Assembly: GCA_903825575.1 (NCBI GenBank)
Contig: CAIKAW010000031.1
Location: forward strand, 3,469-67,468
DNA from: an uncultured bacterium
Lineage (GTDB): Bacteria > Actinomycetota > Actinomycetes > S36-B12 > CAIKAW01
DNA length: 64,000 bases
Direction of reading: 5' to 3'
In this document: positions 44,587-61,170 of the stretch, one piece after another
Numbering within the stretch: position 1 is the first letter of the stretch
How the letters are laid out: every line of letters begins with the position of its first letter
Program-made: the position numbers and the translations under genes
The notes under the pieces: model-generated
Seen by the model: only the letters and a program-made list of their open reading frames with translations
Databases searched by the model: none
Told to the model about the DNA's origin: nothing

Positions 44587-44604
44587 GGCCAGTCATGCGT
44601 CGGT

Positions 44605-46257
44605 TCACTTATCCGCCAACAAAGTAAGGCCGTAAGCAACCGCCCACCGATGCCCTAGCTTGACTCCCACGTTGCCACGGCCAATCAAATGGTGAGGTAG
44701 AACGGCTCCAAGTGCGATTAGGAGCTCTTCATCACCGGCCGGTCCACCAACCAGGAGCAATTCGTTTGGATCAGCACCGTTAAGAGCGCGCACGACATTG
44801 ACACCAAGAATCTCGGCCTTCAGACGCAATCGAAGTACTCGCCATTCCGAGGGCGACAAGCGCCGGTGGAATGGTAGGAGCCCTGCAGGTCCGGCTACGG
44901 CCAGGGCCCCAACGAGGTCTGCGGGCGCCGCACTTGTTAAGAAGTCCCTTTGTCCATCTTCACCCACCAAGACATGAGGATTGGCTACCAGACTCGATGG
45001 TCCACGTTTAACCCAGTCTGCAGCCCCGTGAGGGATCCCCAGGACTGTTGCAACTGCCAGTGTCAGTAGCTCCCCGCCTCCCGCGCACGATACGGCTCCT
45101 ATCGTTCCAGCCATCGCATCAACGGTTCCGCCGCCAAGATCTATTACGGTAGTTCCAGATTCGGAGCCGGGGGTGCTCAGGGCGCCGGTCTGCCCTGCTA
45201 ATGATTCCGACCCCAACAAATGAACGGGGCGCGCAGTCAGATCGCCCACTAATTGGATCGGGTCAACGCTGTCTGGGGCGTTGGTAGACAGCGCGGCCAG
45301 GGCCAGACCGACTTCGTTCGGTCGGGCCCACACGCTGGATGCAGCCTCGCGCAGATTGATTCCGAAAAGGTCTGCCACTTCGGCGCTGGATCCTTCGACA
45401 GACCAGGCGCTTGCCCGATGTCGACCATCTCGGATCTGAGCTAACGCATCCAGGATTGGAAGCCGAAGCCGCCCGCCATCCAGATCGATCCAATCATTGG
45501 ACGAAACCGGATGCGTTGGTGAAGCGGTCGCGTTTCGAGCGACCAATATGGCCCGTTGTCCAGCGTTTTGATCGGCAAGTGCACCGGCGATCACTCGATC
45601 CGAAATTGCGAAATCGGTTGCGAGGCGGAAGGGGTCGGCAAGGCGTGAGACTACGTGGCCGATAGCCGCCACCTCGATTCCCACAAGATCGGCGGCGAGG
45701 GCGGCAGCTGCGTCGATCTCGTCGATGATCGGAATATCCCAGGCGCAGCGATTAGCCAAGAGCACGCCTTCATCTCCGGCGGTTGCAATGCCTTGGATAC
45801 TCAGACCAGCACCAGCCCATGCGTCCAAGATGGGCAGAATGTCTCGAAAGCCCATACCGCGCCTGGCAATGGCAATGATTGGGGTCGCTGACGCCGGCAT
45901 TGGTCCGCCCAGATCGATTGGTATGGCCAAGGCAAAACCGGGCCGGCCTGGGGTGGCGCTTCGATTCGACAAGATCTGAAATTGCCCAGTCGGTATTGGG
46001 GGATCAGGGATAAGCCGAACACCAGTCTCAACCGGTACTTGTCCAGTAATAACGACAAGGTCTGCGACTAAACCAGAATCGCGCTCAATTCGAGACAGCA
46101 ACCGAGCTGCATGTTGCCAGGCTCCGGCTGAACCTTTGCGACCTCGAGTTGGGGCCCGATCCCATGCCAATGGAGTCCAGCGCTCGGCTGTTCCTGCTCC
46201 GGCCAACACAATTTCGGTAGTCGAGTTGCCGACGTCGATTCCGGCGACGATGCTCAT
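44605..46257 (-). CDS. pduG: Diol/glycerol dehydratase reactivase, large (alpha) subunit homolog
   Basis: N-terminus MSIVAGIDVGNSTTEIVLA (compare PduG/DdrA MRYIAGIDIGNSSTEVALA). ATPase motifs VIDLGGGTVDA, GGGELLT, LLLVGGPAGDEEL and GRGNVGVKLGHRWAVAYGL. ATGA overlap with the small-subunit stop. Confidence 0.85.
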   Translation of the reverse strand: MSIVAGIDVGNSTTEIVLAGAGTAERWTPLAWDRAPTRGRKGSAGAWQHAARLLSRIERDSGLVADLVVITGQVPVETGVRLIPDPPIPTGQFQILSNRSATPGRPGFALAIPIDLGGPMPASATPIIAIARRGMGFRDILPILDAWAGAGLSIQGIATAGDEGVLLANRCAWDIPIIDEIDAAAALAADLVGIEVAAIGHVVSRLADPFRLATDFAISDRVIAGALADQNAGQRAILVARNATASPTHPVSSNDWIDLDGGRLRLPILDALAQIRDGRHRASAWSVEGSSAEVADLFGINLREAASSVWARPNEVGLALAALSTNAPDSVDPIQLVGDLTARPVHLLGSESLAGQTGALSTPGSESGTTVIDLGGGTVDAMAGTIGAVSCAGGGELLTLAVATVLGIPHGAADWVKRGPSSLVANPHVLVGEDGQRDFLTSAAPADLVGALAVAGPAGLLPFHRRLSPSEWRVLRLRLKAEILGVNVVRALNGADPNELLLVGGPAGDEELLIALGAVLPHHLIGRGNVGVKLGHRWAVAYGLTLLADK

Positions 46258-46634
46258 TCAGGCTTGGCCAGTCCACGACGCTGATAGGTGCGACTGGCTT
46301 CCCTGACTAATTCCGCCACCAACGGCGCGCCTCTGGAATCCAAACTGTCCGCCAATTCAAACAAGTTTGAGGCGGTCGAGCGGTACGGACGTAGCGCTTC
46401 ATAGATACCCATTACCTCTTCATCGGGGATGCTCGTTAGCTCCGCTGCGCGCAGGAGATTCTCCGACAGATTCGGATTGCCATGAGCTGCGGCAACGCTG
46501 GCCTGATGCCGAAGGGTGTTCGGATGGATCCGGACGTCATCGATCGAAACTTCTCCGCGTCGGACAGTATCAAGCGTCACTTCTGATAAGGGGCGCTCGG
46601 AATACCCATATGCGTCAACATTTCGTTCGCTCAT
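46254..46634 (-). CDS. pduE: B12-dependent diol/glycerol dehydratase small (gamma) subunit, lacking an N-terminal extension
   Basis: VRIHPNTLRHQASVAAAHG..LLRAAELTSIPDEEVMGIYEALRPYRST..ELADSL..LVREASRTYQRR aligns with the PduE/DhaB3 core. 126 aa. Confidence 0.88.
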   Translation of the reverse strand: MSERNVDAYGYSERPLSEVTLDTVRRGEVSIDDVRIHPNTLRHQASVAAAHGNPNLSENLLRAAELTSIPDEEVMGIYEALRPYRSTASNLFELADSLDSRGAPLVAELVREASRTYQRRGLAKPE

Positions 46635-48853
46635 ACCAGCTCCAAGGTCTCGGGAACATAAACGTTGCTACAACTACGCTCAATGGCCACTAGAGAGATG
46701 ACTTTGGTGTGGTAACGCGCCTCTATCGCTTCGTCACTGTAGGGATTGCGAGCCGGCTCAGGTGTGCTTCCCTTGGCATGACGGCCCGCATTTGTGCCCA
46801 ATAGTCGATACAACTCGCGAGTCACCGTCGGAGCGACGCTGTATAACTCGAGGTTAGCTAGCGGAGTCAAGTCGCGTCGATGAATGAGCGCAGTGCCTTT
46901 GGCCTGAAGTCCGATTGAGATTCCCGACCCAGACAGCTGTGCTGCAGTCAGTCCCAGGCGGCCCAGATCAATCGTGTCGTTCACCCGCACTATTCGACCT
47001 ATGCACCCTTCCTCCTCGAGGCCGGCAAGGAGTTCTTCAAGTACGTCGACTACAAGCAGTCCCGATAATGTTTGCCATACTTCTCGTCCGACTGCCGGCG
47101 ATACCCCGATAACCACATCACGAGGATCAGTACTCAGAGTGGCCGCACCAGTTGATCTAAGGCGATGACTGCTGTGCTGCTGTTGCTCGGCGCGGAGGTC
47201 TGCGACGGATCGTTCTTGTCGAATACCATCGATTTCCGCCTGGCGCGCTGGTGTTGGCACGTAACCCGTACCTGGTCCGGCGTAGTCATTGGGGTCCGTT
47301 ACCAGCGAGAGCACATTCCATTGCTCGTCAAAGATTGCCGCGGTATGCAGATAGTCGCCATGTACGCGCTGCTGCAACATCGTCAGCATTCGCCCCGCCT
47401 CTACCTCATATCCGCAGTCGGCTAGCGCGGTCACAACATCGAGCATCGTGATGCCAGAATCACGCACGATACGCGCAGCATTTAGGGGCGTCATGAGATC
47501 GGCTGCGGGAATGTCCTTGGAACCGGCCGCATCTATGGCTTGAGCTGCCCACTCGTCGCTGAAGTCACCGAGTCCCAGGTACCGGTAGACATCACGTACC
47601 GCCGAGACCGCCCGCTCCCGTAGCGATTCGAGGGCATTCATGTCTGTTGAGCGAAGACCACCATCGACCCCCCAATCCCGCTGCATGGCGAGGAAGTCGT
47701 CGATATCCTCCGAATTCCACTGACTCGGGCCGAACATGTTGTCGTAACGCTGGATCGAACCGAAGCCACTGCAGATGTAATCCGACCCCGCAATGAAGAT
47801 TGGATGCGTTCGAGAGGTCCGGCGGACGTCCGACTCAGACATCAAGGCGTCGTTTCCAGTACAGGCTTCAAGATTGCGAGCCATGACCATTAAGTTCTCG
47901 GCCATCAAGGAGCGCACTCCGCCGGGCACTGAACTGGCCACTGACGCAGAATCGATGCCTCCGTTCTGGACACCCTGCGCACCAATCGCACGTGCCAGCG
48001 AAACGCACCGCGCTTCAAGGTAGAACATCGAACGCTTCTCAGCCCCGCCCATCAAGGCTTCGGCGCCGCCACCGGAGGTGACCCGCATCTTGATTCCCCG
48101 CGATGCGTACGCCGAAGTCAGGAAGGCCTTGGACCATGGAGAATCGTCGCCGTCTACGAAAATCTGCTCGGTCCCGTAAAGCGAGACTGTTTCCGCGTAG
48201 GACACAAGTCCGCGCAGTCCCATCCACAATTCCAGGGCTTCTTCCACAGAACATTGAACTAGAACTCCGGCGGATCCAACTGCCGCGCCGATACTGACAG
48301 CGATCGCGTTGGAGGGGGCATCTCCGAGAACCGGTACGGTCGTCTCAATCTCGCGAAACCCAAACGCCGCTGCCGTTGCAGCATCTGCACTTAGCAAAAG
48401 CGGGTCATCGCTGCGATTAGTGACGTGGGCCTGATTGCTTGGTGTCCGGCGGGCTCGCATTTTCGTCATAGCGATGACCAATTCGGCCGGACGTAGCAAT
48501 GTGATGATCTCAGCCAACTTGGCCGGGGTCATGCCCGCTACAAGCCTAACAATCTCGCTGCGGGAAACATTTGGATCAATGAACATTCTCGCCGCGACAA
48601 GATTGTCAAGGGCCATTGCCTCAATGGCAACATCTAGATCGATTCCGTGGGCCGCAATAAAGGAGTCAATTGCATCGAACTCGGAAGCTGGTCGCGAGTC
48701 CAGCTCCGTGACTTGCCCCTCAGAAATGACTAGCGAAGGAATCGGGTCGTGGGGTGAGGCAAAGGCCACCAGACCTAAATCGACATCAGGGACTGCAAAG
48801 CCGTCAAGATTAACTCTCTGCTCATCCATGAATCGGATGCGACCGATTGTCAT
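46631..48853 (-). CDS. B12-dependent diol/glycerol dehydratase, large (alpha) and medium (beta) subunits fused in one 740-aa polypeptide
   Basis: Residues 1 to about 545 match PduC/DhaB1 (KMRARRTPSNQAHVTN, REIETTV, YAETVSLYGTE, GAQGVQNG, SESDVRRT, ICSGFG, DNMFGPS, GDYLHTAAI, DPNDYAGPGTGY). Residues about 579-740 match the PduD/DhaB2 core (VVIGVSPAVG, EEEGCIGRIVRV, LSGSGISIGLQAKGTALIHRRDL). A linker of about 33 aa (QERSVADLRAEQQQHSSHRLRSTGAATLSTDPR) joins them with no stop. Confidence 0.9.
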   Translation of the reverse strand: MTIGRIRFMDEQRVNLDGFAVPDVDLGLVAFASPHDPIPSLVISEGQVTELDSRPASEFDAIDSFIAAHGIDLDVAIEAMALDNLVAARMFIDPNVSRSEIVRLVAGMTPAKLAEIITLLRPAELVIAMTKMRARRTPSNQAHVTNRSDDPLLLSADAATAAAFGFREIETTVPVLGDAPSNAIAVSIGAAVGSAGVLVQCSVEEALELWMGLRGLVSYAETVSLYGTEQIFVDGDDSPWSKAFLTSAYASRGIKMRVTSGGGAEALMGGAEKRSMFYLEARCVSLARAIGAQGVQNGGIDSASVASSVPGGVRSLMAENLMVMARNLEACTGNDALMSESDVRRTSRTHPIFIAGSDYICSGFGSIQRYDNMFGPSQWNSEDIDDFLAMQRDWGVDGGLRSTDMNALESLRERAVSAVRDVYRYLGLGDFSDEWAAQAIDAAGSKDIPAADLMTPLNAARIVRDSGITMLDVVTALADCGYEVEAGRMLTMLQQRVHGDYLHTAAIFDEQWNVLSLVTDPNDYAGPGTGYVPTPARQAEIDGIRQERSVADLRAEQQQHSSHRLRSTGAATLSTDPRDVVIGVSPAVGREVWQTLSGLLVVDVLEELLAGLEEEGCIGRIVRVNDTIDLGRLGLTAAQLSGSGISIGLQAKGTALIHRRDLTPLANLELYSVAPTVTRELYRLLGTNAGRHAKGSTPEPARNPYSDEAIEARYHTKVISLVAIERSCSNVYVPETLELV

Positions 48854-49284
48854 GACGCGGATTCCTTCAGATAGACATCTAAACCGGCTTCAGCGGCAGC
48901 AAGATCTTGAGCGGCAGTGCCGCCGCTAACTCCGATGCCGCCGATTACGCGATTACCATCCCATAGCGGCAGACCACCAGCAAAGCAGATGTATCGGCCA
49001 CCAGCGGCCGCCGAAAGTCCAGCCAATTCGGCCCCCGGCGACGCAAGTTCAGTGAGTTCATGGGTCCCGGCGCGATGGGCCGTGGCTGTATAGGCCTTGT
49101 CTACGGCCAAGGTAGGGCCCGCGATTTCGGCGCCATCCATCCTCGAGAAGGCGACTAGATTGCCGCCTGCATCAACCACAGCTGCGGAGACCAACGCCTG
49201 ATTTGCCGCAGCGCTGGAAGTTGCTTCCCGAACCATTCGGCTCGCGAGTTCCAGATCTATTTCCCAGCGATTAACTCGTGGCAT
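48850..49284 (-). CDS. GlcG/HbpS-like (DUF336, PduO C-terminal-domain-like) protein
   Basis: 144 aa: AAVVDAGGNLVAFSRMDGA..TLAVDKAYTA..GGLPLWDGNRVIGGIGVSGGTAAQD. ATGA overlap with the dehydratase start. Confidence 0.8.
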   Translation of the reverse strand: MPRVNRWEIDLELASRMVREATSSAAANQALVSAAVVDAGGNLVAFSRMDGAEIAGPTLAVDKAYTATAHRAGTHELTELASPGAELAGLSAAAGGRYICFAGGLPLWDGNRVIGGIGVSGGTAAQDLAAAEAGLDVYLKESAS

Positions 49285-50330
49285 TAGCGGACTCCTTCAA
49301 GATAGGCGGCGGCTTGCCTTCGTAGCCGTTCGTGAACTCCGCCCATGGGCGCAACCCCGTGCAACAGGTGTTTGGGGAACTTCGCCACCATCGTGTAGAC
49401 GACATCAACCACGTTCGCAACGGGGGAGAGCACCGCTTGAGCAACTAGCTGGTAGCTGTCGAGCGTCGATAATCCAGTCAGTTCCGAAACCCAGTAGATC
49501 AACTGTTGTTGTGAGATTCGGAAGGCGTCTTCCAGCGGCTTGGTCGATCCGGTCGTCATGATGAAATCGTCGGATTCCAATTTTGGCCAAGGCGTTGCGA
49601 CTGCTTTGATGAGGTCGACGATCACTACCGAATCCATCGCCGTCTCAACGGCAACGCCGCAGGTTTCTCCTTCCCCCTGACGCGCATGACCGTCGCCAAA
49701 ACTGAACATTGCACCTTCGACATTCACTCCGAGATAACAGGTCGTGCCAGCCCGCATCTCAGGGGTGTCCATGTTTCCACCCCAATCCCCTGGGGCCAGA
49801 GATGAGCGAACCTCACCTAGGGCGGGCGCGACACCAACAGTTCCGTGCATCGGATCAAGCGGAAGCTCGGCGGTGTAATGAGTGTCCCGGGCCGAATAGT
49901 GGACCAAGCGGGCCGCCAAATCCAATTCGTAACGCCACGTGCGTTCTGCTAAAGCCGGATGCAGCAGGGCAGTTGTCGGGGTGGCAGTCAGGGCACCGAA
50001 CAAGGGAACAGTGCTGCTTACACCCCAGGCATACCTAGGTTCAATGCTGACGAAGTGCACGGCCAGTGTGTCTCCAGGCTCGGCGCCTTCGATGTAGAAC
50101 GGGCCAGTTTGGGGATTCAGTTGGCGCGGGTCACATACCTGACTCGCAAGGTCCGACTCTTGTCGAACTCGTCCCACGAAACAGTCGTGAGTCCAAGTGC
50201 GCAACAGGCTGCCAGGACGAAGGGATGCAACAGGGGCGGCGCCGCCAAACGTGAAGGTTAGTCCGGCCGGATCTGCATCAGCATCATGGTCAAAATCGAC
50301 AATTTGAGCCTGGTTCACGGATATCTCCAT
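49284..50330 (-). CDS. Acetamidase/formamidase family amidohydrolase
   Basis: FmdA/AmdA-type motifs: TGPFYIEGAEPGDTL, GGNMDTPEMRAGTTCYLGV, FSFGDGHARQGEGETCGVAVE. TAATG overlap with the DUF336 gene. Confidence 0.8.
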   Translation of the reverse strand: MEISVNQAQIVDFDHDADADPAGLTFTFGGAAPVASLRPGSLLRTWTHDCFVGRVRQESDLASQVCDPRQLNPQTGPFYIEGAEPGDTLAVHFVSIEPRYAWGVSSTVPLFGALTATPTTALLHPALAERTWRYELDLAARLVHYSARDTHYTAELPLDPMHGTVGVAPALGEVRSSLAPGDWGGNMDTPEMRAGTTCYLGVNVEGAMFSFGDGHARQGEGETCGVAVETAMDSVVIVDLIKAVATPWPKLESDDFIMTTGSTKPLEDAFRISQQQLIYWVSELTGLSTLDSYQLVAQAVLSPVANVVDVVYTMVAKFPKHLLHGVAPMGGVHERLRRQAAAYLEGVR

Positions 50331-50362
50331 CGGGTCGATCAGAGCCTAGCGGGAAATGAAAC

Positions 50363-50398
50363 GGCGGGGTGCGAGGACTAGTGCCCTCACACCCCGCC
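50363..50398 (-). terminator. GC-rich hairpin between the permease and the formamidase operon (terminator/attenuator or processing site)
   Basis: ggcggggtgcgaggac/tagt/gccctcacaccccgcc gives a 16-position stem with 2 mismatches. On the - strand it is followed by GTTTCATTTCCC. It lies 14 nt after the permease stop and 33 nt before the fmdA ATG. Confidence 0.5.
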
Positions 50399-50411
50399 GC
50401 CTACTGACAGT

Positions 50412-52034: not shown

Positions 52035-52168
52035 GCGATCTTCGGCTTGATCGGTGTTGAGGCATGTTCCCAGTGCCAGCCAACCGAATCAAGTACCTCG
52101 GGCAACCGAAAGGATTGGGTTTCTTGTCATGGTTGCCGCCCCGGATTGAGTTCAACCTATTGAAAACG

Positions 52169-52206
52169 GATATATCGGACAGGCTGCCGTACAGAATCCC
52201 TAGGGA
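52169..52206. promoter_or_regulatory. Two perfect palindromes in the divergent control region (GATATATC and TCCCTAGGGA)
   Basis: GATATATC at 52169-52176 is AT-rich and could also be a -10 element. TCCCTAGGGA is at 52197-52206. Both are exact self-complements by inspection. Confidence 0.35.
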
Positions 52207-52241
52207 ACCCGAACTGGGGGAACTTTTGACAACCAATTGCG

Positions 52242-52276: not shown

Positions 52277-52309
52277 TGGTGAAATTGTCCAGCCCAGCGG
52301 AGGTGCCGA

Positions 52310-53599: not shown

Positions 53600-55140
53600 T
53601 GCCTGAACTGCTTGTTGAATCGGCCGGTGTTCCTAGGGCCCGGGCCATGGTGGCGCGCGCAGAATGGGCGGCGCGCACTTTTGCCACGTATGACAAACCG
53701 TCGGTAGACCGCATTGTGCGGGCCGCAGCCAAAGCCCTCGCAGATCACGCTGCTGAGTTCGCTAAGGCCGCCGTTGCCGAAACCGGGTTCGGCGTGGCCG
53801 ATCACAAGGCGCTTAAGAACCTGGCCTGTTCAACCGGCTTGGTCGATCATTACCGGGACCACGACTATGTGACTCCGCGAATAGATGTCGACGCCAAGAT
53901 TGTGGAAGTCCCGCGTCCTGCCGGTGTGATCTTCGCGTTAACCCCCTCGACGAATCCGGTCGCCACTACATCGTTCAAGATCCTGCTTGCCCTCATGACC
54001 CGTAGCGCAGTGATCGTGAGTCCGCATCCATTGGCTAAGGACGTTTGCTCTGCTGCCGCCAAGGTGATGGCCGAGGCGGCCTTAGCTGCCGGCGCCCCTG
54101 ACGGTGTCATCCAATGGGTTGCCGAACCTTCGATCCCACTCATCAACGCTTTGATGACAGATGAGCGAGTGGATGTGATCGTTGCCACTGGCGGAAGCGC
54201 AGTAGTTCGGTCCGCATATCGAAGTGGAAATCCGGCAATCGGAGTTGGGCCAGGGAATGTGCCTGTCCTTGTGGATCGAACGGCAGATATCCCAGCCGCA
54301 GCAGCACGCATCATTGAAAGTAAGAGTTTCGACAACTCGATTCTTTGCACGAACGAGAGCGTTGTAATTGTTGAATCAGCGGTTGCGGACAAGTTCGTTT
54401 CGGCCATGGTGCACGAGGGAGGTTTCCTACTCAACCCTGAGGACCGCGATCGAATCCGCGAACTGGTGTTCCCCGACGGGCATTTCGATATCCGATTCGT
54501 TGGCAAGGATGCAACTTGGATCGCGGCAGAGGCCGGGATCAGAGTCCCTGCGAACACGAAGGTCCTTATCGCGCCATTCGACCTAGCCGTACCCGAAGAA
54601 CCGCTGGCCCATGAAAAACTGTGTCCAGTACTTGGTTTGATCAAAGTTCCTACGGCGGCCCGCGGCATCGAGGTTGCGCGAGCGGTGCTGCGGATCACTG
54701 GTGCAGGCCATTCTGCGGCCATCCACTCACGAGATGCTCAAACCGTGCTGGCATTTGGCGCGGGCGTGCCCGTCTACCGAGTTTCGGTAAACGTCGGGAA
54801 CAGCTTGGGGAGCTCGGGCATCCATACGAACCTGGCTCCATCCATGACCATCGGAACCGGCTACGCCGGGCGATCATCCGTAGGCGAGAACCTTCAGCCA
54901 TCACATTTGATTCACTGGACAAGACTGGCCTACAACGCCGATGTGCGCGAAGTTCTCCCAGATTTCACGGGGCTATCACCATGGACTGCCGCAACGGGCA
55001 GCGTGCCGCCTTATCCGCAGGCGTCTAACTTGAGTACCGCAAATGTCGCACCACCGCGCGCCCAGGACGACGCCACTGAACTCCGCGAGGAGATTCGCCG
55101 GCTGATCGTCGAAGAGCTTCATCAGATAATCAAGGGCTGA
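53599..55140 (+). CDS. CoA-acylating aldehyde dehydrogenase (EutE/PduP class) with a C-terminal extension
   Basis: ALTPSTNPVATT, ATGGSAVVRSAY, GVGPGNVPVLVD and catalytic-Cys context FDNSILCTNES. ATG 53599 forms a 1-nt TGATG-type (TGA/ATG) junction with the upstream stop. Confidence 0.88.
   Translation: MPELLVESAGVPRARAMVARAEWAARTFATYDKPSVDRIVRAAAKALADHAAEFAKAAVAETGFGVADHKALKNLACSTGLVDHYRDHDYVTPRIDVDAKIVEVPRPAGVIFALTPSTNPVATTSFKILLALMTRSAVIVSPHPLAKDVCSAAAKVMAEAALAAGAPDGVIQWVAEPSIPLINALMTDERVDVIVATGGSAVVRSAYRSGNPAIGVGPGNVPVLVDRTADIPAAAARIIESKSFDNSILCTNESVVIVESAVADKFVSAMVHEGGFLLNPEDRDRIRELVFPDGHFDIRFVGKDATWIAAEAGIRVPANTKVLIAPFDLAVPEEPLAHEKLCPVLGLIKVPTAARGIEVARAVLRITGAGHSAAIHSRDAQTVLAFGAGVPVYRVSVNVGNSLGSSGIHTNLAPSMTIGTGYAGRSSVGENLQPSHLIHWTRLAYNADVREVLPDFTGLSPWTAATGSVPPYPQASNLSTANVAPPRAQDDATELREEIRRLIVEELHQIIKG
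55072..55137 (+). other. Putative C-terminal encapsulation peptide of the aldehyde dehydrogenase
   Basis: The last 22 aa, ATELREEIRRLIVEELHQIIKG, form an amphipathic helix pattern. They are separated from the catalytic core by a Pro-rich, low-complexity linker (SPWTAATGSVPPYPQASNLSTANVAPPRAQDD). Confidence 0.6.
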
Positions 55141-55143
55141 ATC

Positions 55144-55746
55144 GTGGCTGAACTGCGTTCCTTCATTTTCATCGATCAACTGCAGCCGCAGACGATGTGT
55201 TACCTCGGGACGTGGATCCGAGGGGCATTACCCAGATCGAACATGGCCGCCCAGATTATTGAGGTTGCACCCGGGCTTGATATTGAACCCTTGACCGATG
55301 TGGCACTTAAGCACGCTGAAGTGCAGGCGGGGATCTTGGTCGTGGAACGCCAGTTTGGGTATCTCGAGCTTCATGGGCCCACTGCTCAGGTGCGGGCGGC
55401 CGGAGCAGCTGCACTTGAGGCTTTAGGCGCCAATGAGACCGACGCATTGAAGCCTGAGATTCTAGCTTCGCGCATCATCACGATGATTGATTCGCAGCAT
55501 GCCTTCCTAATCAACCGGAACAAGGTTGGTTCGATGGCACTGCCAGGCGAATCCCTATTCGTTCTGGAAATGCAACCTGCGTCCTACGCCATTCTTGCCA
55601 CGAACGAGGCTGAGAAGGCCGCACGAATCAAGGTTGTCGACTATCGGATGATCGGTGCAACGGGCCGGGTGTACTTGACCGGCAAAGAGGCTGACGTCAG
55701 GCAAGCCGCGGAAGCGGCCGAAGTTGCCCTTCGGAACGCGCGATGA
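55144..55746 (+). CDS. Tandem BMC-domain shell protein (BMC-T class), paralog 1
   Basis: 200 aa made of two repeats with a BMC-domain pattern (..IIEVAPGLDIEPLTDVALKHAEV..LELHG.. and ..LEMQPASYAILATNEAEKAARIKVV..GRVYLTG..). Paralogous to 56802-57455. Confidence 0.8.
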   Translation: MAELRSFIFIDQLQPQTMCYLGTWIRGALPRSNMAAQIIEVAPGLDIEPLTDVALKHAEVQAGILVVERQFGYLELHGPTAQVRAAGAAALEALGANETDALKPEILASRIITMIDSQHAFLINRNKVGSMALPGESLFVLEMQPASYAILATNEAEKAARIKVVDYRMIGATGRVYLTGKEADVRQAAEAAEVALRNAR

Positions 55747-56201
55747 GTGGTGATTGGACGGGCAGTTCAGCCGACTTGCGGGCTTTGGTCCGTGAGGTAC
55801 TTCGTGACGCCGTACCGAAGAATGACGCGCAAGAGGTTCCGGCTACCGCACCTGCCCAAGTAACCGCTCCCGCAGTGGTGGAGCCGATCTCGATCCGTTC
55901 CGATGCGGACCTTGCAGCGTTCGTTCAACGGGTGCTGGATGCCGCGGCGGATCCAGGGACAGCTGCTGCTCTGCGCTCAGGCCGGGTTAAGTTTGTGCTT
56001 GCCGGCGCCGCTAGTCCGATGGAAGTGTCGACTCCGCGGGCTGCTGGATATCGAGTGGAGCGCGGTGCGGTAACCGAACGCCACGTGCGCGAGGCTGCCG
56101 AAGTCGGGACCACGTTGATTCTTGGCAGTCGGGCCGTGTTGACTCCTTTAGCAAAGGATCGTGCGCGTACTGCCGGAATCACGATTGAGAAGGAGAACTG
56201 A
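55743..56201 (+). CDS. BMC-associated protein of unknown function with an N-terminal encapsulation-peptide-like helix (possibly PduM-like)
   Basis: 152 aa. It begins SADLRALVREVLRDAV (amphipathic) followed by a Pro/Ala linker (PKNDAQEVPATAPAQVTAPAVVEP). A second helix, SDADLAAFVQRVLDAAAD, and the C-terminal AVTERHVREAAEVGTTLILGSRAVLTPLAKDRARTAGITIEKEN complete it. ATGA and TGATG overlaps join it to the flanking shell genes. Confidence 0.6.
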   Translation: MSGDWTGSSADLRALVREVLRDAVPKNDAQEVPATAPAQVTAPAVVEPISIRSDADLAAFVQRVLDAAADPGTAAALRSGRVKFVLAGAASPMEVSTPRAAGYRVERGAVTERHVREAAEVGTTLILGSRAVLTPLAKDRARTAGITIEKEN

Positions 56202-56449
56202 TGCTTCGCGCGAGAGTCGTAGGCAATGTATGGGCGTCTAAGCGCCTACCCGAAGTTCCTAACGGCGCATTCCTGGAAGTTGTAATTGAAGAAGGCGGCG
56301 CTCATCTGGTCGCCTTCGACGTCTTAGGCAGCGGGATTGGTGAAAGGGTCTTGGTAACAACTGGCTCCGTCGCCGCAGCTTGGTTCCCGGGCAACCCGCC
56401 GCCGATTGATGCGCTAATTATTGGCTCTATCGACGAAGTAGCGAACTGA
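56201..56449 (+). CDS. BMC vertex pentamer protein (BMC-P; EutN/CcmL family)
   Basis: 82 aa: MLRARVVGNVWASKRLPEVPNGAFLEV...GERVLVTTGSVAA...DALIIGSIDEV. RBS GAAGGAG lies upstream. Confidence 0.9.
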   Translation: MLRARVVGNVWASKRLPEVPNGAFLEVVIEEGGAHLVAFDVLGSGIGERVLVTTGSVAAAWFPGNPPPIDALIIGSIDEVAN

Positions 56450-56479
56450 CCGATACGCGGCGGTTCCGCGACCCAAACT

Positions 56480-56498
56480 CCGTGACAACAGGTCACGG
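56480..56498 (+). promoter_or_regulatory. Small perfect hairpin in the 68-nt gap preceding the BMC-H gene
   Basis: ccgtgac-aacag-gtcacgg (7-bp stem, 5-nt loop), about 10 nt upstream of the AAGGAGAAG RBS of the BMC-H gene. This is the only sizeable gap inside the shell cluster. Confidence 0.25.
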
Positions 56499-56517
56499 TG
56501 ATCGACAAGGAGAAGAC

Positions 56518-56805
56518 ATGTCGAACAATGCAATTGGATTGATCGAGACCAAGGGCTATGTTGCGGCACTTGCTGCGGCTGACGCGATGGTTAAGGCCGC
56601 CAACGTCACTATCGTTGGTCGCGACGAGGTTGGCGATGGCCTTGTAGCCATCACGATCGTTGGCGATGTTGGCGCAGTCAAGGCTGCCACTGAGGCTGGG
56701 GCCGAGACGGCTGGCTCGGTGGGCGAATTGGTATCCGTGCACGTGATCCCGCGTCCGCACCCTGAGCTTGCCAAGCACTTCAACGTATCCGGCGAAACCT
56801 CGTGA
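56518..56805 (+). CDS. BMC hexamer shell protein (BMC-H; PduA/EutM type)
   Basis: AIGLIETKGYVAALAAADAMVKAANV...GDGLVAITIVGDVGAVKAATEAG...SVHVIPRPH is a canonical single BMC domain. ATG 56518 lies behind AAGGAGAAG. Confidence 0.93.
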   Translation: MSNNAIGLIETKGYVAALAAADAMVKAANVTIVGRDEVGDGLVAITIVGDVGAVKAATEAGAETAGSVGELVSVHVIPRPHPELAKHFNVSGETS

Positions 56806-57455
56806 GCACGGTCCCGCCACCAGCGGGACCGGAGCTGCGCGTTTACCTGTTGGTATCAGATCTGCAGCGACAATTCGCTGCGTATCTGTCTACTCCGACG
56901 CGAGCTCGTGGCTATCCGCCGTTCGAGGGCCAGCATTCCCTCATCGTCGAAGTAGCCCCTGGGCTCGCTATCGAGCGGGTGATCGATTTGGCGCTGAAGT
57001 CCGTTCCGGGTATCGAGCCGGGGATCCTCTTCGTCGAACGGCAGTTCGGGGTGCTCGAATTGCATGGCACCGAACTTTCGGATGTCCTGGCAGCTGGGGA
57101 CGCCATCCTTGCTGGTTTGGCTGCCGAAGCTACGGATCAATTGCGGCCGCGCGTTCTGTACAGCGACGTGATTGAGAACATTACTGACCAGCACGCAGTA
57201 ATTATCAATCGCAATCGTCAAGCATCTATGGTCTTGCCTGGCGACACCTTGTTGGTTTACGAAGTGACACCCGCACTCTTCGCAGCCGTGGCAGCAAATG
57301 CGGCCGAGAAGGTTGCACCAGAGAACACTTTGGTCGACGTGCAGATGATTGGTGCGGCTGGACGGGTCTACATCAGCGGTACCACAGCGCAAGTGGAATT
57401 GGCTCGCGCCGAAATCACTCGCGTGCTCGAGGGGATAGCCGGCAGAGATCACTGA
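56802..57455 (+). CDS. Tandem BMC-domain shell protein (BMC-T class), paralog 2
   Basis: 217 aa with the same two-repeat architecture as 55144-55746 (LRVYLLVSDLQRQ.., IVEVAPGLAIERVIDLALKSV.., VYEVTPALFAAVAANAAEKVA.., GRVYISG). GTGA overlap with BMC-H. Confidence 0.8.
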   Translation: MSTVPPPAGPELRVYLLVSDLQRQFAAYLSTPTRARGYPPFEGQHSLIVEVAPGLAIERVIDLALKSVPGIEPGILFVERQFGVLELHGTELSDVLAAGDAILAGLAAEATDQLRPRVLYSDVIENITDQHAVIINRNRQASMVLPGDTLLVYEVTPALFAAVAANAAEKVAPENTLVDVQMIGAAGRVYISGTTAQVELARAEITRVLEGIAGRDH

Positions 57456-57469
57456 ATAGGGGTCATGAC

Positions 57470-58462
57470 GTGGTAATCAAGGTAGATGTCGGCGACGATC
57501 GGCTCGAGGCGTTCGCGCGGGCAGCTCTAACTCAATATGGCATCGGCCCCGATGCCACCCTGTCACTCCTAAATATCTCCGAGAACGCCACTTACCAGGT
57601 GGACGATCCTGCAAGTGGTAAGAGAACCGTCCTTCGGATCCACCGTCCCGGCTATCACTCGCGCGCTGCAATCGAGAGTGAATTGACATGGTTGAACACT
57701 CTGCGCGATAGCCAAGTGGTGCGTACCCCGGCCGTTCTGCCCGCGACCTCCGGCGACGGTGTGGTTCTAGCCGCAATCGCCGGAGGGGAAACTCGCCAAG
57801 CTGTGATGTTCGACTGGTGTCCTGGGATCGAACCTCCCGAAGATCGACTGGTCGAGGATTTTCACCAGTTGGGCCAGATCACAGCACGGCTGCATGAGCA
57901 GGCCAAACACTGGCGGCGACCTGCGAATTTCACCAGATTCACTTGGGATTTCGAAACTTCCTTGGGTGAGCATGGGCATTGGGGGAGTTGGCGAGACGGA
58001 ATGGGTGTGGGCCTGGAAGAGGCTGAGGTTCTCGGACGAGCCGCGAGCCTTATGGACCGCCGTTTGCAGGCTTTCGGCGCCGGGCCTGACAAGTTTGGAT
58101 TAATCCACGCAGATCTGAGATTGGCCAACCTCCTATTAGACGGCGATGACATCTACGTCATCGATTTCGATGACTGTGGATTCGGTTGGTTCCTGTACGA
58201 CCTCGGCTCCGCCGTCTCCTTTATCGAGCACTATCCGCAAATCCCCGAAATGGTGGCTTCGTGGTCTGAGGGCTACCGAACCGTCGCTCCGCTCAGCGCG
58301 GCGGATGAGCGGGAATTGCAGACATTCATAATGTTTCGGCGACTACTTCTGGTGTCGTGGATTGGCACTCACTCGGGAACGGATATTGCCGTAGCACTGG
58401 GCGAGGAGTACTCCGCCACAAGCTGCGTGTTAGCTGAACGGTACCTTTCAGAATTCTCGTGA
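57470..58462 (+). CDS. APH-family phosphotransferase (candidate amino-alcohol kinase)
   Basis: Kinase motifs GLIHADLRLANLLLDG (HxDxxxxN) and YVIDFDDCGFGW (DFD). Position matches the aminopropanol kinase of RMM-type loci. Confidence 0.8.
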   Translation: MVIKVDVGDDRLEAFARAALTQYGIGPDATLSLLNISENATYQVDDPASGKRTVLRIHRPGYHSRAAIESELTWLNTLRDSQVVRTPAVLPATSGDGVVLAAIAGGETRQAVMFDWCPGIEPPEDRLVEDFHQLGQITARLHEQAKHWRRPANFTRFTWDFETSLGEHGHWGSWRDGMGVGLEEAEVLGRAASLMDRRLQAFGAGPDKFGLIHADLRLANLLLDGDDIYVIDFDDCGFGWFLYDLGSAVSFIEHYPQIPEMVASWSEGYRTVAPLSAADERELQTFIMFRRLLLVSWIGTHSGTDIAVALGEEYSATSCVLAERYLSEFS

Positions 58463-58499
58463 CTCGGGGCGTCTGACCCCGACCGCTTCGGAGGCATTG

Positions 58500-59282
58500 A
58501 TGAACGCATTCTTGACTGGGTATTCGGTAATCGTGACCGGTGGCACCAAAGGGATCGGGAAGGGCATCGCCCGCAGTTTTGTAGAAGCCGGAGCCAATGT
58601 CCTGATCACAGGTCGCGATGAACTCAGCGCGAAGAGTGCTGTTGCGGACCTGATCGCAATTGGCCCTGGGTCAGCCTCCTACACGCTAGGCGATGTAGCG
58701 AAACGGGCAGATATGCAAGCAATGGTGAAAGTGGCCCTGGAACGCAACGGCCGCATCGATGTGCTCTGCGCCAATGCTGGCATCTTCCCCGATTCTCGGC
58801 TCGATGTAATGTCCGAGGACGACTGGGACTTGGTCTTCGATACAAACGTCAAGGGAAACTTCCTAGCTCTTCAATCGTGTCTGGCTGCCCTTACCGATTC
58901 GGGTCGAGGACGGGTTATCCTGACTTCGTCAATTACCGGTCCAATCACCGGGTTCCCCGGCTGGTCGCACTATGGGGCCAGCAAAGCGGCACAACTGGGC
59001 TTCATGCGAACGGCGGCCATTGAACTGGCTAGCCGAGCAATCACGGTTAACGCTGTCTTGCCAGGCAACATCGCAACTGAAGGCCTTGCCGATCTTGGCC
59101 CGGAATACCGCCGGTCGATGGAGGCAGCAATACCCGTTGGCCGATTGGGTGAGGTGGCCGATATCGGTGCAGCTGCTGTCTTCTTTGCGAGCCCGCAAGC
59201 GGCTTTTATCACCGGGCAGGCCCTTGCCGTAGACGGCGGCCAAACTCTGCCCGAATCATTGGCTGCTTTGGATAGTCAATGA
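58500..59282 (+). CDS. Short-chain dehydrogenase/reductase (candidate amino-alcohol/aminoketone dehydrogenase)
   Basis: VTGGTKGIGKGIA, NAGIF and S..YGASKAA catalytic motifs. ATG 58500 lies 5 nt after GGAGG. Confidence 0.8.
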   Translation: MNAFLTGYSVIVTGGTKGIGKGIARSFVEAGANVLITGRDELSAKSAVADLIAIGPGSASYTLGDVAKRADMQAMVKVALERNGRIDVLCANAGIFPDSRLDVMSEDDWDLVFDTNVKGNFLALQSCLAALTDSGRGRVILTSSITGPITGFPGWSHYGASKAAQLGFMRTAAIELASRAITVNAVLPGNIATEGLADLGPEYRRSMEAAIPVGRLGEVADIGAAAVFFASPQAAFITGQALAVDGGQTLPESLAALDSQ

Positions 59283-60082
59283 GCATGAGTGACCTGCCCA
59301 GCGCAATCGGCCCTACCGCTGAAGAAACGCGGTTGAAATTGGTCGAATTGATCGCAAATGGTTCGCTTAGTGCTGGTCAGCGACTTGGGTCGGAACGTGC
59401 TTTGGCGGCGACCCTTGGGGTAAGCCGATCCACCTTGCGTCAGGCGCTGGCAGTCCTGGAAGACTCAGATGCAGTCCGCCGCATTCCAGGCCGCGGTGGT
59501 GGCACTTTCGTTTCTGCCCAAAAGATCGAACGTGACCTCTCGCGCATTGTGGGCGTTCCGGCATACCTAAGAGACCAGGGGATTACCGCGGGCAGCCGCG
59601 TCATCAGTGCGGCCGTTCTAGCCGCTGATGATGAAACCGCTGCCGCGCTGGGCTTAGCATCTGACGCACTCGTCTACGACATCGTCCGCATCCGTCTTGC
59701 AGATGGGGCGCCAATATCACTCGAACGCGCTCGTTTCCCGGCCGATCGGTTCCCCGGACTGCTTGAACTTCCGTTAGGCGGATCTGTATATGAACTGCTT
59801 GAGCAGGAGTACTCGGTAACACCCCATGAAGCCTTGGAGCGCATCGAAGTGGTGCCAGCTGGCGCCGATGAGGGAAGCATTCTTGGCGTTCCTGCCGGAG
59901 CCCCTTTGCTTTCGGTAACTCGGACGACTGAAGACGCAGCCGGGGCAAGAATTGAGTTCTCACATGATCTGTTTCGAGCAGATCGCACGCGAATCGTAGT
60001 TCGCACCCCCGGACGAGCAGGGGTAACTGGATCAGCGCGTACGCGGGGAAACATAATCGAATTGCGCGCCAGTTCGCGTTAG
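59279..60082 (+). CDS. GntR-family transcriptional regulator, HutC subfamily (UTRA effector domain)
   Basis: wHTH SERALAATLGVSRSTLRQALAVLEDSDAVRRIPGRGGGTFV plus a C-terminal UTRA-like domain. ATGA overlap with the SDR stop; last gene of the + strand operon. Confidence 0.88.
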   Translation: MSMSDLPSAIGPTAEETRLKLVELIANGSLSAGQRLGSERALAATLGVSRSTLRQALAVLEDSDAVRRIPGRGGGTFVSAQKIERDLSRIVGVPAYLRDQGITAGSRVISAAVLAADDETAAALGLASDALVYDIVRIRLADGAPISLERARFPADRFPGLLELPLGGSVYELLEQEYSVTPHEALERIEVVPAGADEGSILGVPAGAPLLSVTRTTEDAAGARIEFSHDLFRADRTRIVVRTPGRAGVTGSARTRGNIIELRASSR

Positions 60083-60086
60083 GTTT

Positions 60087-61162: not shown

Positions 61163-61170
61163 CAACGAAA

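Follow-up and report, generated by a model that had tools for sequence, protein, structure and literature searches.

A fused B12-dependent dehydratase with an altered substrate pocket accompanies an amino-alcohol microcompartment locus in an uncultured actinomycete

Introduction

Why does a B12-dependent dehydratase operon stand back to back with an operon for an amino-alcohol bacterial microcompartment (BMC)? We met this arrangement in a 64,000-nucleotide stretch of an uncultured actinomycete genome (contig CAIKAW010000031.1; hereafter the window). The + strand carries an amino-alcohol BMC operon of the RMM/AAUM kind (52310-60082), recognized by Pfam, NCBIfam and PDB matches. On the - strand (44605-52034), genes for a permease, an amidase-like protein and a DUF336 protein come first, and those for a fused B12 dehydratase, the matching small subunit and a reactivase alpha follow. 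We consider it probable that this is an aminoacetone/1-amino-2-propanol microcompartment locus in which the linked dehydratase provides a second aldehyde entry.

The shell operon

The open reading frames and coordinates of the original prediction were borne out on re-examination, and a Pfam profile check recovered Aminotran_3, Aldedh, BMC, EutN_CcmL, BMC-H, APH, adh_short and GntR with UTRA on the + strand. The first gene encodes a class-III aminotransferase-fold PLP enzyme (429 aa; 52310..53599; Aminotran_3, 1.6e-73), which reached the cut-off of no NCBIfam family and has a putrescine aminotransferase as its top PDB match (1.9e-57). It is followed by a CoA-acylating aldehyde dehydrogenase of the EutE/AdhE N-terminal type (513 aa; 53599..55140; Aldedh, 3.7e-28), which matches the NCBIfam acetaldehyde dehydrogenase (acetylating) at 1.5e-114, under the family cut-off. 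Its start codon was verified at 53599, as against the longest-ORF start at 53515. A Pro-rich linker leads to its C-terminal encapsulation peptide, ELREEIRRLIVEELHQIIKG, a motif kept in nearly all related loci.

Two tandem-domain shell proteins (BMC-T) are encoded. The first, of the double-stacking CcmP/CsoS1D type (200 aa; 55144..55746; PDB 5L39, 6.8e-98; Pfam BMC, 1e-10), is a close relative of M. smegmatis MSM0275. The second (217 aa; 56802..57455; NCBIfam CcmP-like, 1.9e-56) is closely related to MSM0271, a tandem-BMC protein of solved structure (5SUH, 6.7e-95), and had no Pfam match at default thresholds. Between them lie the pentameric vertex protein BMC-P (56201..56449; EutN_CcmL, 2.1e-17) and the hexameric BMC-H (56482..56805; BMC, 9.2e-26), whose likely true start is the ATG at 56518, read there together with a Shine-Dalgarno-like sequence.

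A conserved RMM-specific protein of 152 aa is also encoded here (55743..56201). Searches of Pfam, NCBIfam and PDB sequences returned zero matches for it, and its 1334 homologues are essentially all unnamed or 'hypothetical'. Its N terminus forms an amphipathic helix like an encapsulation peptide (LRALVREVLRDAV); a disordered linker follows, along with two small alpha/beta sub-domains. The motif at the N terminus is conserved and similar to LLRQIIEDVLRDM, the peptide of Salmonella PduD. Its AlphaFold model (mean pLDDT 75.7) found nothing in the PDB by Foldseek at E ≤ 0.001.

The operon continues with an APH-family kinase (57470..58462; APH, 5e-27), closely related to the solved M. smegmatis protein 6EF6 (2.3e-95), which we take to be the (S)-1-amino-2-propanol kinase and which the PDB names only 'Aminoglycoside phosphotransferase'. 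The next gene encodes a short-chain dehydrogenase (SDR; 58497..59282, likely true start ATG 58500; adh_short_C2, 6.8e-56) matching 3PK0, 6CI8 and 6CI9 at ~1e-87; the last two, 3-oxoacyl-ACP reductases by PDB name, are presumably the M. smegmatis 1-amino-2-propanol dehydrogenase. The final gene encodes a GntR/HutC-family regulator with a winged HTH and a UTRA effector domain (59279..60082; UTRA, 6.1e-37; GntR, 5.8e-15). Matches to solved M. smegmatis parts at E ~1e-87 to 1e-98 thus cover the kinase, the dehydrogenase and the two tandem shell proteins, a close kinship that upholds the predicted RMM assignment.

The predicted couplings were confirmed by direct reading of the junctions: TGATG joins the aminotransferase-fold and aldehyde dehydrogenase genes and the 152-aa and BMC-P genes, ATGA the first BMC-T and 152-aa genes and the SDR and GntR genes, and GTGA the BMC-H and second BMC-T genes.

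For RMM compartments, a conversion of aminoacetone to propionyl-CoA has been proposed (PMC8156839). The M. smegmatis kinase is reported to phosphorylate (S)-1-amino-2-propanol. In the pathway proposed here, the permease would import the amine, the SDR would interconvert aminoacetone and 1-amino-2-propanol, and the kinase would phosphorylate the latter. The aminotransferase-fold enzyme is the proposed 1-amino-2-propanol O-phosphate phospho-lyase and would release propionaldehyde, ammonia and phosphate, an activity that to our knowledge has never been demonstrated. The peptide-targeted aldehyde dehydrogenase would then trap the aldehyde as propionyl-CoA within a shell predicted to consist of one BMC-H, one BMC-P and two BMC-T proteins, where the 152-aa protein, which bears an encapsulation-type N-terminal helix, probably helps organize cargo.

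The dehydratase operon

On the - strand the profile check recovered AA_permease, FmdA_AmdA, HbpS-like/DUF336, Dehydratase_LU and MU in one protein, Dehydratase_SU and DDR. The APC-family amino acid/amine permease (50412..52034; AA_permease_2, 8.9e-21) diverges from the shell operon, and its place beside the aminotransferase-fold gene is kept in most related loci. It is followed by an FmdA_AmdA-family amidase-like protein (348 aa; 49284..50330; PF03069, 1.1e-23, partial match) that scored 56 bits against the NCBIfam formamidase, whose cut-off is 500; this gene was found only in the window's arrangement and a few other loci. Amide hydrolases recur near such dehydratases: the FmdA-like protein in the window, an isochorismatase-family protein in Pseudohalocynthiibacter (L089) and an Amidase in Bradyrhizobium (L088). 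The HbpS-like/DUF336 (GlcG-type) protein (144 aa; 48850..49284; PF03928, 3.8e-32) is encoded in most loci with the window's arrangement and in L051 and L052.

The fused large and medium (alpha-beta) subunits of a diol/glycerol-family B12-dependent dehydratase form one 740-aa protein (46631..48853; LU, 9.6e-224; MU, 2.5e-25), which exceeds the cut-off of NCBIfam NF011979 (814.7 against 788 bits). The small (gamma) subunit (126 aa; 46254..46634; Dehydratase_SU, 1.6e-35) and a reactivase alpha-like ATPase (550 aa; 44605..46257; DDR, 4.1e-35; DDR_swiveling, 2.7e-14) complete the set. No reactivase beta-subunit gene follows the alpha gene; a convergent VTT-domain gene begins 18 nt downstream. The - strand genes had been described as all overlapping by 1-4 nt, which holds from the FmdA-like gene down to the reactivase gene (TAATG, ATGA, ATGA and ATGA, read directly) but not for the permease, which is uncoupled and set apart by an 81-nt gap. 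Across both strands, the domain E-values and serial stop/start overlaps far exceed chance.

PduD and PduE carry terminal encapsulation extensions, whereas the dehydratase subunits in the window lack them. Alignment of the beta part begins at PddB residue 48 and at DhaB2 residue 13, which leaves the region of the PduD N-terminal encapsulation peptide absent. Residues 13-122 of the small subunit cover profile positions 21-131 of 133, making it a short form without the PduE-type N-terminal extension, and its homologues in related loci (109-143 aa) have no conserved extension either. The reactivase aligns with 2D0O_A (2e-33) from residue 2 to 546, without terminal extension. No encapsulation peptide or extension was found on the fused dehydratase, small subunit or reactivase in any arrangement. 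Packaging of the dehydratase in the shell is therefore unproven, and a shell would lose its purpose if the aldehyde were made in the cytosol.

The predicted 275-bp divergent control region was found at 52035-52309. Besides TTGACA (52226-52231), it contains two HutC/GntR-type half-sites, TCGGTCT (52258) and TTGGTAT (52271), as well as an inverted repeat, TACCAAAGC/GCTTTGGTA (52242-52250 and 52268-52276). In related loci TTTGGTCAGACCAAA, a perfect palindrome, is found at 47-95 bp upstream of the aminotransferase-fold gene. The GntR/HutC protein, as a repressor, may control the divergent promoters. Within the 81-nt gap, directly past the permease stop codon, lies a terminator-like 20-bp hairpin (50356..50403, -) followed by UUUCAUUU. 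The surrounding 96 nt (50325-50420) fold at -50.8 kcal/mol (z = -4.86; 0 of 200 shuffles as good). A comparable GC-rich hairpin follows the permease in 11 of 12 related same-arrangement loci whose gap is about 75 nt or longer (all but L004) and in none of the four with a gap below 45 nt. Since the hairpin is strong and no operator-like site was found at this gap, co-expression of the dehydratase is uncertain in the window's arrangement.

Conservation of the linkage

We took the 80 loci best matching the window's BMC-T and searched the 61 informative ones for a dehydratase within 10 kb. The adjacency, which the original prediction had proposed to count, is kept: a fused dehydratase is present in 53 loci, in three arrangements (divergent in 14, the window's own layout; co-directional behind GntR in 38; convergent in 1). 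As these loci are the window's closest relatives, the resulting 87% is not transferable to all RMM loci. In the commonest, co-directional arrangement the dehydratase is often translationally coupled to the final shell-operon gene: at least seven loci have an ATGA or GTGA overlap between the GntR stop and the dehydratase start, in several with GGAGG just 5', and in others the two are 11-30 nt apart. The dehydratase is absent from 8 of the 61 loci and is therefore dispensable for the compartment.

The substrate pocket

The window's dehydratase keeps the catalytic and Ca-binding residues; in the pocket, Asp301 and Ala336 replace Ser301 and Gln336. All 48 linked dehydratases share Q141, H143, E170, E221, Q296, D335, S362 and F374; every one has Asp at 301, and 47 have Ala at 336. 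Ser301 and Gln336 are instead found in Salmonella PduC and in the large subunit of Halomarina; these two residues adjoin the substrate C3 substituent (PMC7674605). With both changes in the C3 pocket, the substrate may therefore differ from plain 1,2-propanediol; an Asp beside the would-be methyl group is hard to rationalize and argues against plain propanediol.

In a provisional neighbour-joining tree, the sampled Asp301 sequences group as a single clade. Members lie inside APH, Aminotran_3 and SDR operons of Agrobacterium (L083), Starkeya/Ancylobacter (L087) and Bradyrhizobium (L088), all three lacking shell genes, and within an RMM-type shell operon in Pseudohalocynthiibacter (L089). Others lie beside Aminotran_3 (L093) or a fusion of a group-II PLP decarboxylase with an S58 peptidase (L092). 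Two fused Ser301 control dehydratases had no kinase, aminotransferase-fold or SDR neighbours. Residue 336 is Gln in L089, so that Asp301 alone is the common feature. The adjacent dehydratase and reactivase are thus not a chance neighbour: the Asp301 clade is co-inherited with kinase and aminotransferase-fold modules. Most likely the dehydratase would be a second aldehyde source for the same pathway, acting on a diol analogue of the amino alcohol.

The pocket also invites another reading, which we regard as unlikely: the dehydratase may be a step in one linear pathway, Asp301 binding the ammonium of an amine-bearing vicinal diol such as 3-amino-1,2-propanediol. The product would be 3-aminopropanal or, in a flipped binding mode, aminoacetone, to be passed to the SDR, kinase, aminotransferase-fold enzyme and aldehyde dehydrogenase; the aminoacetone route would explain the place of an aminoacetone reductase in the pathway. 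The invariant Asp301 and the reduced or varied residue 336 sit exactly at the C3 pocket, the clade is repeatedly found beside amine-handling PLP enzymes (L083, L087, L088, L092, L093), and amide hydrolases recur nearby (window, L088, L089). However, we know of no diol dehydratase that acts on amino-diols or makes a ketone from a terminal diol, and no natural source of amino-diol substrates was identified. The RMM loci lacking a dehydratase indicate that the core pathway can do without it, Gln336 in L089 leaves Asp301 alone in common, and the proposal draws on two residues and on gene neighbourhoods.

Discussion

A reading of the dehydratase operon as a self-standing cytosolic unit for diol or glycerol catabolism that merely adjoins the compartment locus, the conclusion of Sutter 2021, appears improbable. 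The opposite strand and the terminator-like hairpin ahead of it in the window, the lack of encapsulation peptides, the eight loci without it and the finding of Sutter 2021 that just 4 of 32 RMM2 loci have PDU enzymes would all fit. Yet 53 of 61 loci keep the adjacency, through three or more rearrangements, with translational coupling to the final shell-operon gene in many; the same clade occurs within three shell-less alphaproteobacterial kinase/aminotransferase-fold/SDR operons and one proteobacterial shell operon; and it travels without the phosphotransacylase, propionate kinase and alcohol dehydrogenase that are customary in diol pathways.

Very improbable is an extension of the second scenario of Ravcheev et al. 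2019, with lactaldehyde and 1,2-propanediol as intermediates (PMC6620236), in which the class-III enzyme, whose top database matches are genuine aminotransferases and which co-travels with SDR and dehydratase in many loci, would turn 1-amino-2-propanol into lactaldehyde, the SDR would reduce this to 1,2-propanediol and the dehydratase would supply propionaldehyde to the aldehyde dehydrogenase: it leaves roleless a conserved kinase closely related to the M. smegmatis enzyme reported to phosphorylate (S)-1-amino-2-propanol, needs a bifunctional SDR that Ravcheev et al. themselves called 'not very likely', and offers no onward route in loci without a dehydratase.

We thus return to the dehydratase as a second aldehyde entry into an RMM compartment, and to its place among known systems. 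The original prediction of a dual-input propionaldehyde organelle stays plausible, and conserved synteny strengthens the functional link, but the idea is not new, the dehydratase lacks an encapsulation peptide and its C3 pocket is altered. Nor is the combination novel, although its annotation stands: Axen et al. 2014 introduced RMM2 as the name for the RMM gene set with diol dehydratase genes on the opposite strand and had already put forward a bifunctional compartment, while preferring an independent unit adjoining the compartment locus. For the M. smegmatis type (RMM1/AAUM1, 140 loci), the text of the 2021 catalogue makes no mention of a dehydratase. Sutter 2021 judged the dehydratase unlikely to be important, a dismissal that the conserved linkage contradicts for this clade. 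The strong conservation of the linkage in this clade, together with an unusual Asp301 pocket, offers a new and testable lead.

Gene content of the locus

The forward-strand operon (52310-60082) encodes a class-III aminotransferase-fold enzyme, an acylating aldehyde dehydrogenase of the EutE/AdhE type (NCBIfam; corrected start 53599), a 200-aa BMC protein (BMC-T1), an RMM-conserved 152-aa protein without domain match (55743-56201), an EutN/CcmL pentamer protein (BMC-P), a BMC-H protein, a 217-aa protein recognised as a tandem BMC (BMC-T2) only via solved structures, an APH-family kinase, a short-chain dehydrogenase (SDR) and, at its end, a GntR/UTRA regulator. The reverse strand (44605-52034) carries an APC permease, an FmdA_AmdA-like protein (49284-50330), an HbpS-like/DUF336 protein, a 740-aa fusion of the dehydratase large and medium subunits and a 126-aa dehydratase small subunit (both within 46254-48853), and a reactivase alpha-like protein (44605-46257). 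The ORF map and Pfam scans thus bore out the gene list of the original prediction on both strands. The overlapping stop/start junctions it described could be read directly in the sequence, except that the permease is not coupled and lies 81 nt from the next gene.

In the ORF map, no beta-subunit ORF follows the reactivase alpha gene, and the actinobacterial loci encode an alpha-like reactivase alone; both subunits are encoded at the canonical Halomarina locus. The flanks (29-44 kb and 60-64 kb) consist of housekeeping genes and contain no genes for B12 or propionate metabolism. They include a TldD/PmbA metallopeptidase gene pair (29376-32413, reverse strand), downstream of which lie ordinary chromosomal genes (SerB-like, BacA, SpoU methylase, Band 7). 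On the other side, a 309-aa ORF without Pfam family (60087-61016, reverse strand) is convergent with the GntR gene, tail to tail, and beyond it lie genes for the alpha and probably the beta subunit of electron-transfer flavoprotein (61171-62891, reverse strand); neither the ORF nor the flavoprotein genes are conserved beside related loci. The source is an uncultured actinomycete. Its dehydratase is identical to copies on metagenome contigs, and the closest homologue of the 152-aa protein (97% identical) is labelled 'Actinomycetes bacterium'.

Compartment identity and proposed pathway

Four proteins of the window are close relatives of solved M. smegmatis RMM components. BMC-T1 matched MSM0275 (PDB 5L39, 6.8e-98), BMC-T2 matched MSM0271 (PDB 5SUH, 6.7e-95), the kinase matched PDB 6EF6, taken to be the M. 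smegmatis 1-amino-2-propanol kinase, over residues 15-328 (2.3e-95), and the SDR matched PDB 3PK0, 6CI8 and 6CI9 (each about 1e-87), which we take to be the M. smegmatis 1-amino-2-propanol dehydrogenase. The shell genes run in the order T1, unknown, P, H, T2, in line with the numbering from MSM0275 to MSM0271. By Pfam and PDB matches, the shell inventory is that of the catalogue definition of RMM1/AAUM1, with one BMC-H, one BMC-P and two different double-stacking BMC-T proteins. The layout agrees as well, with the aminotransferase-fold enzyme and acylating aldehyde dehydrogenase heading the shell operon, the GntR gene and a divergent permease, an order found in at least 60 related loci. With kinase, SDR and both BMC-T proteins matching M. 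smegmatis at 1e-87 to 1e-98, the assignment of the forward-strand gene set and order to the RMM type stands.

The RMM compartment has been proposed to turn aminoacetone into propionyl-CoA (PMC8156839), and cited titles indicate that the M. smegmatis kinase and dehydrogenase have been characterised. The aminotransferase-fold enzyme of the window has a class-III fold by sequence and matched no NCBIfam family at cut-off; its proposed role is that of a phospho-lyase giving propionaldehyde. Ethanolamine-phosphate and 5-phosphohydroxylysine phospho-lyases have the class-III aminotransferase fold, and the window kinase has a weak match to two NCBIfam models of kinase-aminotransferase fusions, PRK06148 and PRK06149, in the N-terminal part of these models. 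Mallette and Kimber reportedly worked on the aminoacetone utilisation microcompartment of M. smegmatis in 2017-2018. To our knowledge, only the kinase and dehydrogenase among the RMM/AAUM enzymes have been characterised and not the signature lyase, and we know of the phospho-lyase function of the aminotransferase-fold enzyme only as a proposal.

Conservation of the dehydratase linkage

Scanning species-representative genomes with the window BMC-T yielded at least 564 confirmed relatives. The best 80 loci were kept and searched by tblastn with all window proteins, and 61 of them had enough flanking sequence. The adjacency of dehydratase and RMM shell genes proved to be conserved, with a fused dehydratase in 53 of these 61 loci; since the 80 loci are those closest to the window, this proportion (87%) holds for this clade and not for all RMM loci. 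The dehydratase is divergent and lies behind the permease in 14 loci, as in the window, is co-directional and directly follows the GntR gene in 38, and is convergent after the GntR gene in one. Eight loci lack it, including those of Nocardioides, Pimelobacter, Spirillospora and Pseudonocardia.

In at least seven co-directional loci the stop codon of GntR and the start codon of the dehydratase overlap (ATGA or GTGA), several of them with GGAGG just upstream; other loci have gaps of 11-30 nt. Axen et al. (2014), with four genomes, had argued that dehydratase and shell genes cannot share a transcript, an argument that falls in view of these overlaps.

The locus most similar to the window (L001, CAMAWO010000068.1) belongs to a metagenome-assembled genome of a lake series labelled Bifidobacterium breve. 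Its gene content and 66-85% identity to the actinomycete locus of the window suggest a mis-labelled bin.

Regulatory features

The 81-nt gap between the permease and the next gene contains a 20-bp hairpin followed by UUUCAUUU, and a 96-nt stretch folds with -50.8 kcal/mol (z = -4.9). The hairpin (50356-50403, reverse strand) is GC-rich, has a U-rich tail and lies directly after the permease stop codon. Among related loci with the arrangement of the window, 12 have a gap of at least about 75 nt, and 11 of these (all but L004) carry a similar hairpin behind the permease; the four loci with gaps below 45 nt have none. Canonical U-runs occur in some of the related hairpins (loci L034 and L039). 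The hairpin may set the ratio of permease to dehydratase expression.

Close upstream of the aminotransferase-fold gene, the 275-bp divergent region contains a TTGACA, a pair of HutC-type half-sites and an inverted repeat. Many relatives carry a perfect palindrome, TTTGGTCAGACCAAA, at the corresponding place; the window has the half-sites only, and the exact palindrome was not found there with up to three mismatches allowed. Between the GntR and dehydratase genes, a GntR operator was found in none of 37 co-directional loci; this fits co-transcription in that arrangement but does not prove it. Co-expression of the dehydratase with the shell operon is likely in the co-directional relatives and uncertain in the window, whose dehydratase genes must owe their expression either to transcription through the hairpin or to an unrecognised promoter.

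An Rfam search at E ≤ 1 over 43000-61500 for a cobalamin riboswitch or another RNA element returned only a spurious miRNA match on the hairpin. A scan for sigma-70 promoters and terminators was uninformative, with fewer sites than in shuffled sequences.

Targeting signals and the 152-aa protein

At the C-terminus of the aldehyde dehydrogenase, a Pro-rich linker leads into ELREEIRRLIVEELHQIIKG, a tail that is kept in nearly all related loci. At the N-terminus of the 152-aa protein lies a conserved amphipathic helix (LRALVREVLRD) that is similar to the targeting peptide of Salmonella PduD, LLRQIIEDVLRDM. The AlphaFold model of the 152-aa protein (mean pLDDT 75.7) comprises this helix, a linker that is disordered and a pair of small alpha/beta sub-domains, with no significant match among solved structures. 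The protein has 1334 homologues, essentially all unnamed.

No encapsulation peptide of the PDU type was found on the dehydratase or the reactivase. The alignment of the beta part of the fusion begins at residue 48 in PddB and at residue 13 in DhaB2, which leaves only about 15-20 residues for the alpha-beta linker. The small subunit is of the short form (126 aa) without extension, and the reactivase aligns end to end with no extra terminus. With no targeting signal on dehydratase, small subunit or reactivase, encapsulation of the dehydratase thus receives no support from sequence.

Substrate pocket and phylogeny of the dehydratase

The window fusion was aligned to the Klebsiella glycerol dehydratase fusion structure, 47 related sequences, Salmonella PduC and the Halomarina large subunit. 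The tested Ca-binding and catalytic residues (Gln141, His143, Glu170, Glu221, Gln296, Asp335 and Ser362), as well as Phe374, are retained in the window and all 47 related sequences, and the fused dehydratase scores above the cut-off of NCBIfam NF011979. The substrate C3 pocket differs: the Salmonella and Halomarina enzymes have the canonical pair Ser301 and Gln336, whereas Asp occupies position 301 in the window and all 47 related sequences (48 of 48) and Ala occupies position 336 in 47 of the 48, the window among them. The C3 hydroxyl of the substrate points at Ser301 (PMC7674605), and the mutants S301A and Q336A (Yamanishi 2012; tabulated in PMC7674605) alter Km and inactivation behaviour.

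A search of the whole library revealed three pocket types, namely the canonical Ser/Gln pair, a Ser/Ala pair in fused actinobacterial enzymes, and Asp301 with a variable residue 336; outside the compared loci this tabulation is qualitative, many representative matches being frame-shifted fragments. All Asp301 sequences fall into one clade with actinobacterial and alphaproteobacterial branches in a neighbour-joining tree of the large-subunit region (31 sequences, midpoint-rooted, unbootstrapped). Members of this clade occur widely in Actinomycetota of soil and freshwater as well as in Alphaproteobacteria.

Genomic context of other Asp301 dehydratases

On Agrobacterium cucumeris pO132a (L083, 4811-15831), an operon encloses a fused Asp301 dehydratase and its small subunit together with a sugar-type ABC transporter (UgpC/MalK-like), SDRs, an APH-family phosphotransferase, a class-III aminotransferase-fold enzyme and a GntR regulator. 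Starkeya/Ancylobacter koreensis shows the same pattern with the same transporter type (L087, 6055-17003), and the order in Bradyrhizobium jicamae is APH, Aminotran_3, dehydratase, small subunit, SDR (L088, 6782-13480). None of these three loci contains shell genes, an aldehyde dehydrogenase or, within 10 kb, a reactivase. In Pseudohalocynthiibacter (L089), an RMM-type shell operon continues directly into an ABC transporter, an SDR, an APH kinase, an isochorismatase-family gene and an Asp301 dehydratase. As the aminotransferase-fold proteins of the alphaproteobacterial loci share only 27-28% identity with that of the window, and the kinases were not found by BLAST with the window kinase, these modules are analogous rather than orthologous to those of the window.

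At a further locus (L092, 10001-17147), in an apparently frame-shifted assembly, an Asp301/Thr336 dehydratase has as neighbours a group-II PLP decarboxylase and a fusion of small subunit and Peptidase_S58, an amine-related setting of another kind. The locus also holds a reactivase alpha gene and a 98-aa medium-subunit-like gene, possibly encoding a beta subunit. One more Asp301 locus has an Aminotran_3 gene 3 kb away. Two fused Ser301 control loci have none of these neighbours. Every informative Asp301 context in this small sample includes amine-handling PLP enzymes.

Varied amide/ester hydrolases also recur, with the FmdA-like protein in the window (49284-50330, reverse strand), the isochorismatase-family gene in Pseudohalocynthiibacter (9301-9972) and an Amidase in B. 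jicamae (5335-6852), a hint that the natural substrate could be supplied in amide form.

Possible roles of the dehydratase

The best-supported reading is a joint one, in which the compartment would run the pathway from aminoacetone/1-amino-2-propanol to acyl-CoA and the dehydratase would be integrated as a second aldehyde-forming enzyme. Kinase and lyase would convert R-CH(OH)-CH2-NH2 to R-CH2-CHO, and the B12 enzyme would convert R-CH(OH)-CH2-OH to R-CH2-CHO, by the simplest chemistry the same aldehyde as in the amino alcohol branch. The original prediction had tentatively interpreted the locus in similar terms; its annotation, the RMM identity and the link (53 of 61 loci) held up, while the arrangement turned out to be already published as RMM2 and no encapsulation signal emerged.

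A second reading, which we regard as possible though rather doubtful, makes the Asp301 fused dehydratase a specialised B12 enzyme that co-evolved with kinase/phospho-lyase modules, with or without a shell, and acts on an amine-bearing or non-canonical vicinal diol or amino alcohol, and not a stray propanediol dehydratase. The amine-bearing diol stays in play because of the Asp301 pocket and the amine-related neighbours; 3-aminopropanal or aminoacetone as dehydratase products would be speculation, and a literature search for amino-diol substrates brought up nothing new. That the dehydratase is an independent neighbour of the compartment locus is the least likely reading, though it keeps some probability for the arrangement of the window, with the eight loci that lack it and the missing encapsulation signal on one side and its conserved, often overlapping linkage on the other.

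RMM/AAUM compartment chemistry is so far only partly established, and if the dehydratase is a real component, current models of substrate range, adenosylcobalamin need and cargo targeting are incomplete and the latest catalogue dropped a true part. If it is an ordinary propanediol dehydratase, the locus would be a tidy confirmation of the 'bifunctional' suggestion of 2014. If the specialised-enzyme reading is true, the organelle would have two signature enzymes, overturning the 2021 view of an incidental dehydratase, and the fixed Ser-to-Asp change at a substrate-steering residue could reveal a new substrate class of B12 dehydratases. Three findings speak against the 2021 dismissal: the conserved and often operon-fused linkage, the clade-wide change from Ser301 to Asp and the shell-independent association with kinase and aminotransferase-fold genes.

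Comparison with known systems

Published catalogues of BMC loci contain a named type for this architecture. Axen et al. (2014) called loci RMM2 if they contain diol dehydratase genes and RMM1 if they do not, placed the dehydratase genes of RMM2 on the opposite strand and already suggested a bifunctional compartment. The window, an RMM gene set with diol dehydratase homologues on the opposite strand, has exactly this architecture. Both the combined architecture and the dual-function idea of the original prediction are therefore already in print, and their novelty lapses. The commonest related arrangement differs from RMM2 in this sense, the dehydratase gene lying behind the GntR gene in the same orientation, often so close that stop and start codons overlap. 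Sutter (2021) redefined RMM2/AAUM2 as a mostly proteobacterial type (Proteobacteria, Marinimicrobia) with a gene order unlike RMM1, listed Axen's RMM2 as RMM2/PDU2 and deemed the dehydratase unimportant, and current opinion leans against a link between dehydratase and compartment. The window does not appear to fit the redefined type, its closest relatives being Actinomycetota and its shell order resembling that of M. smegmatis.

Like the Salmonella PDU locus, the window combines a B12 dehydratase of the same family and its reactivase with an acylating aldehyde dehydrogenase and a BMC shell, and propionaldehyde is likely an intermediate common to both. Unlike PDU, it is without PduL, PduQ, PduW, PduO, PduS and PduH; Pfam detected no PduL phosphotransacylase or PduQ alcohol dehydrogenase domains in 41485-62133, in agreement with the earlier remark that the rest of the pdu toolkit is missing. 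Its alpha and beta subunits are fused, its pocket is Asp301/Ala336 and not Ser/Gln, its shell protein set differs, and its medium and small subunits are without the N-terminal targeting peptide of Salmonella PduD (MEINEKLLRQIIEDVLRDM).

With the RMM1/AAUM1 locus of M. smegmatis the window shares the aminotransferase-fold enzyme, acylating aldehyde dehydrogenase, APH kinase, SDR, GntR regulator and divergent permease. It adds the fused B12 dehydratase, its small subunit, the reactivase alpha, the DUF336 protein and the FmdA-like gene, and the hydrolases listed for RMM1 by Axen et al. (2014) were not seen in the window locus. An APH-type kinase adjoining a class-III aminotransferase-fold enzyme also recalls the known pairs of amino-alcohol kinase and ammoniophospho-lyase; in the window such a pair, with a predicted lyase activity, occurs together with shell genes and a B12 dehydratase.
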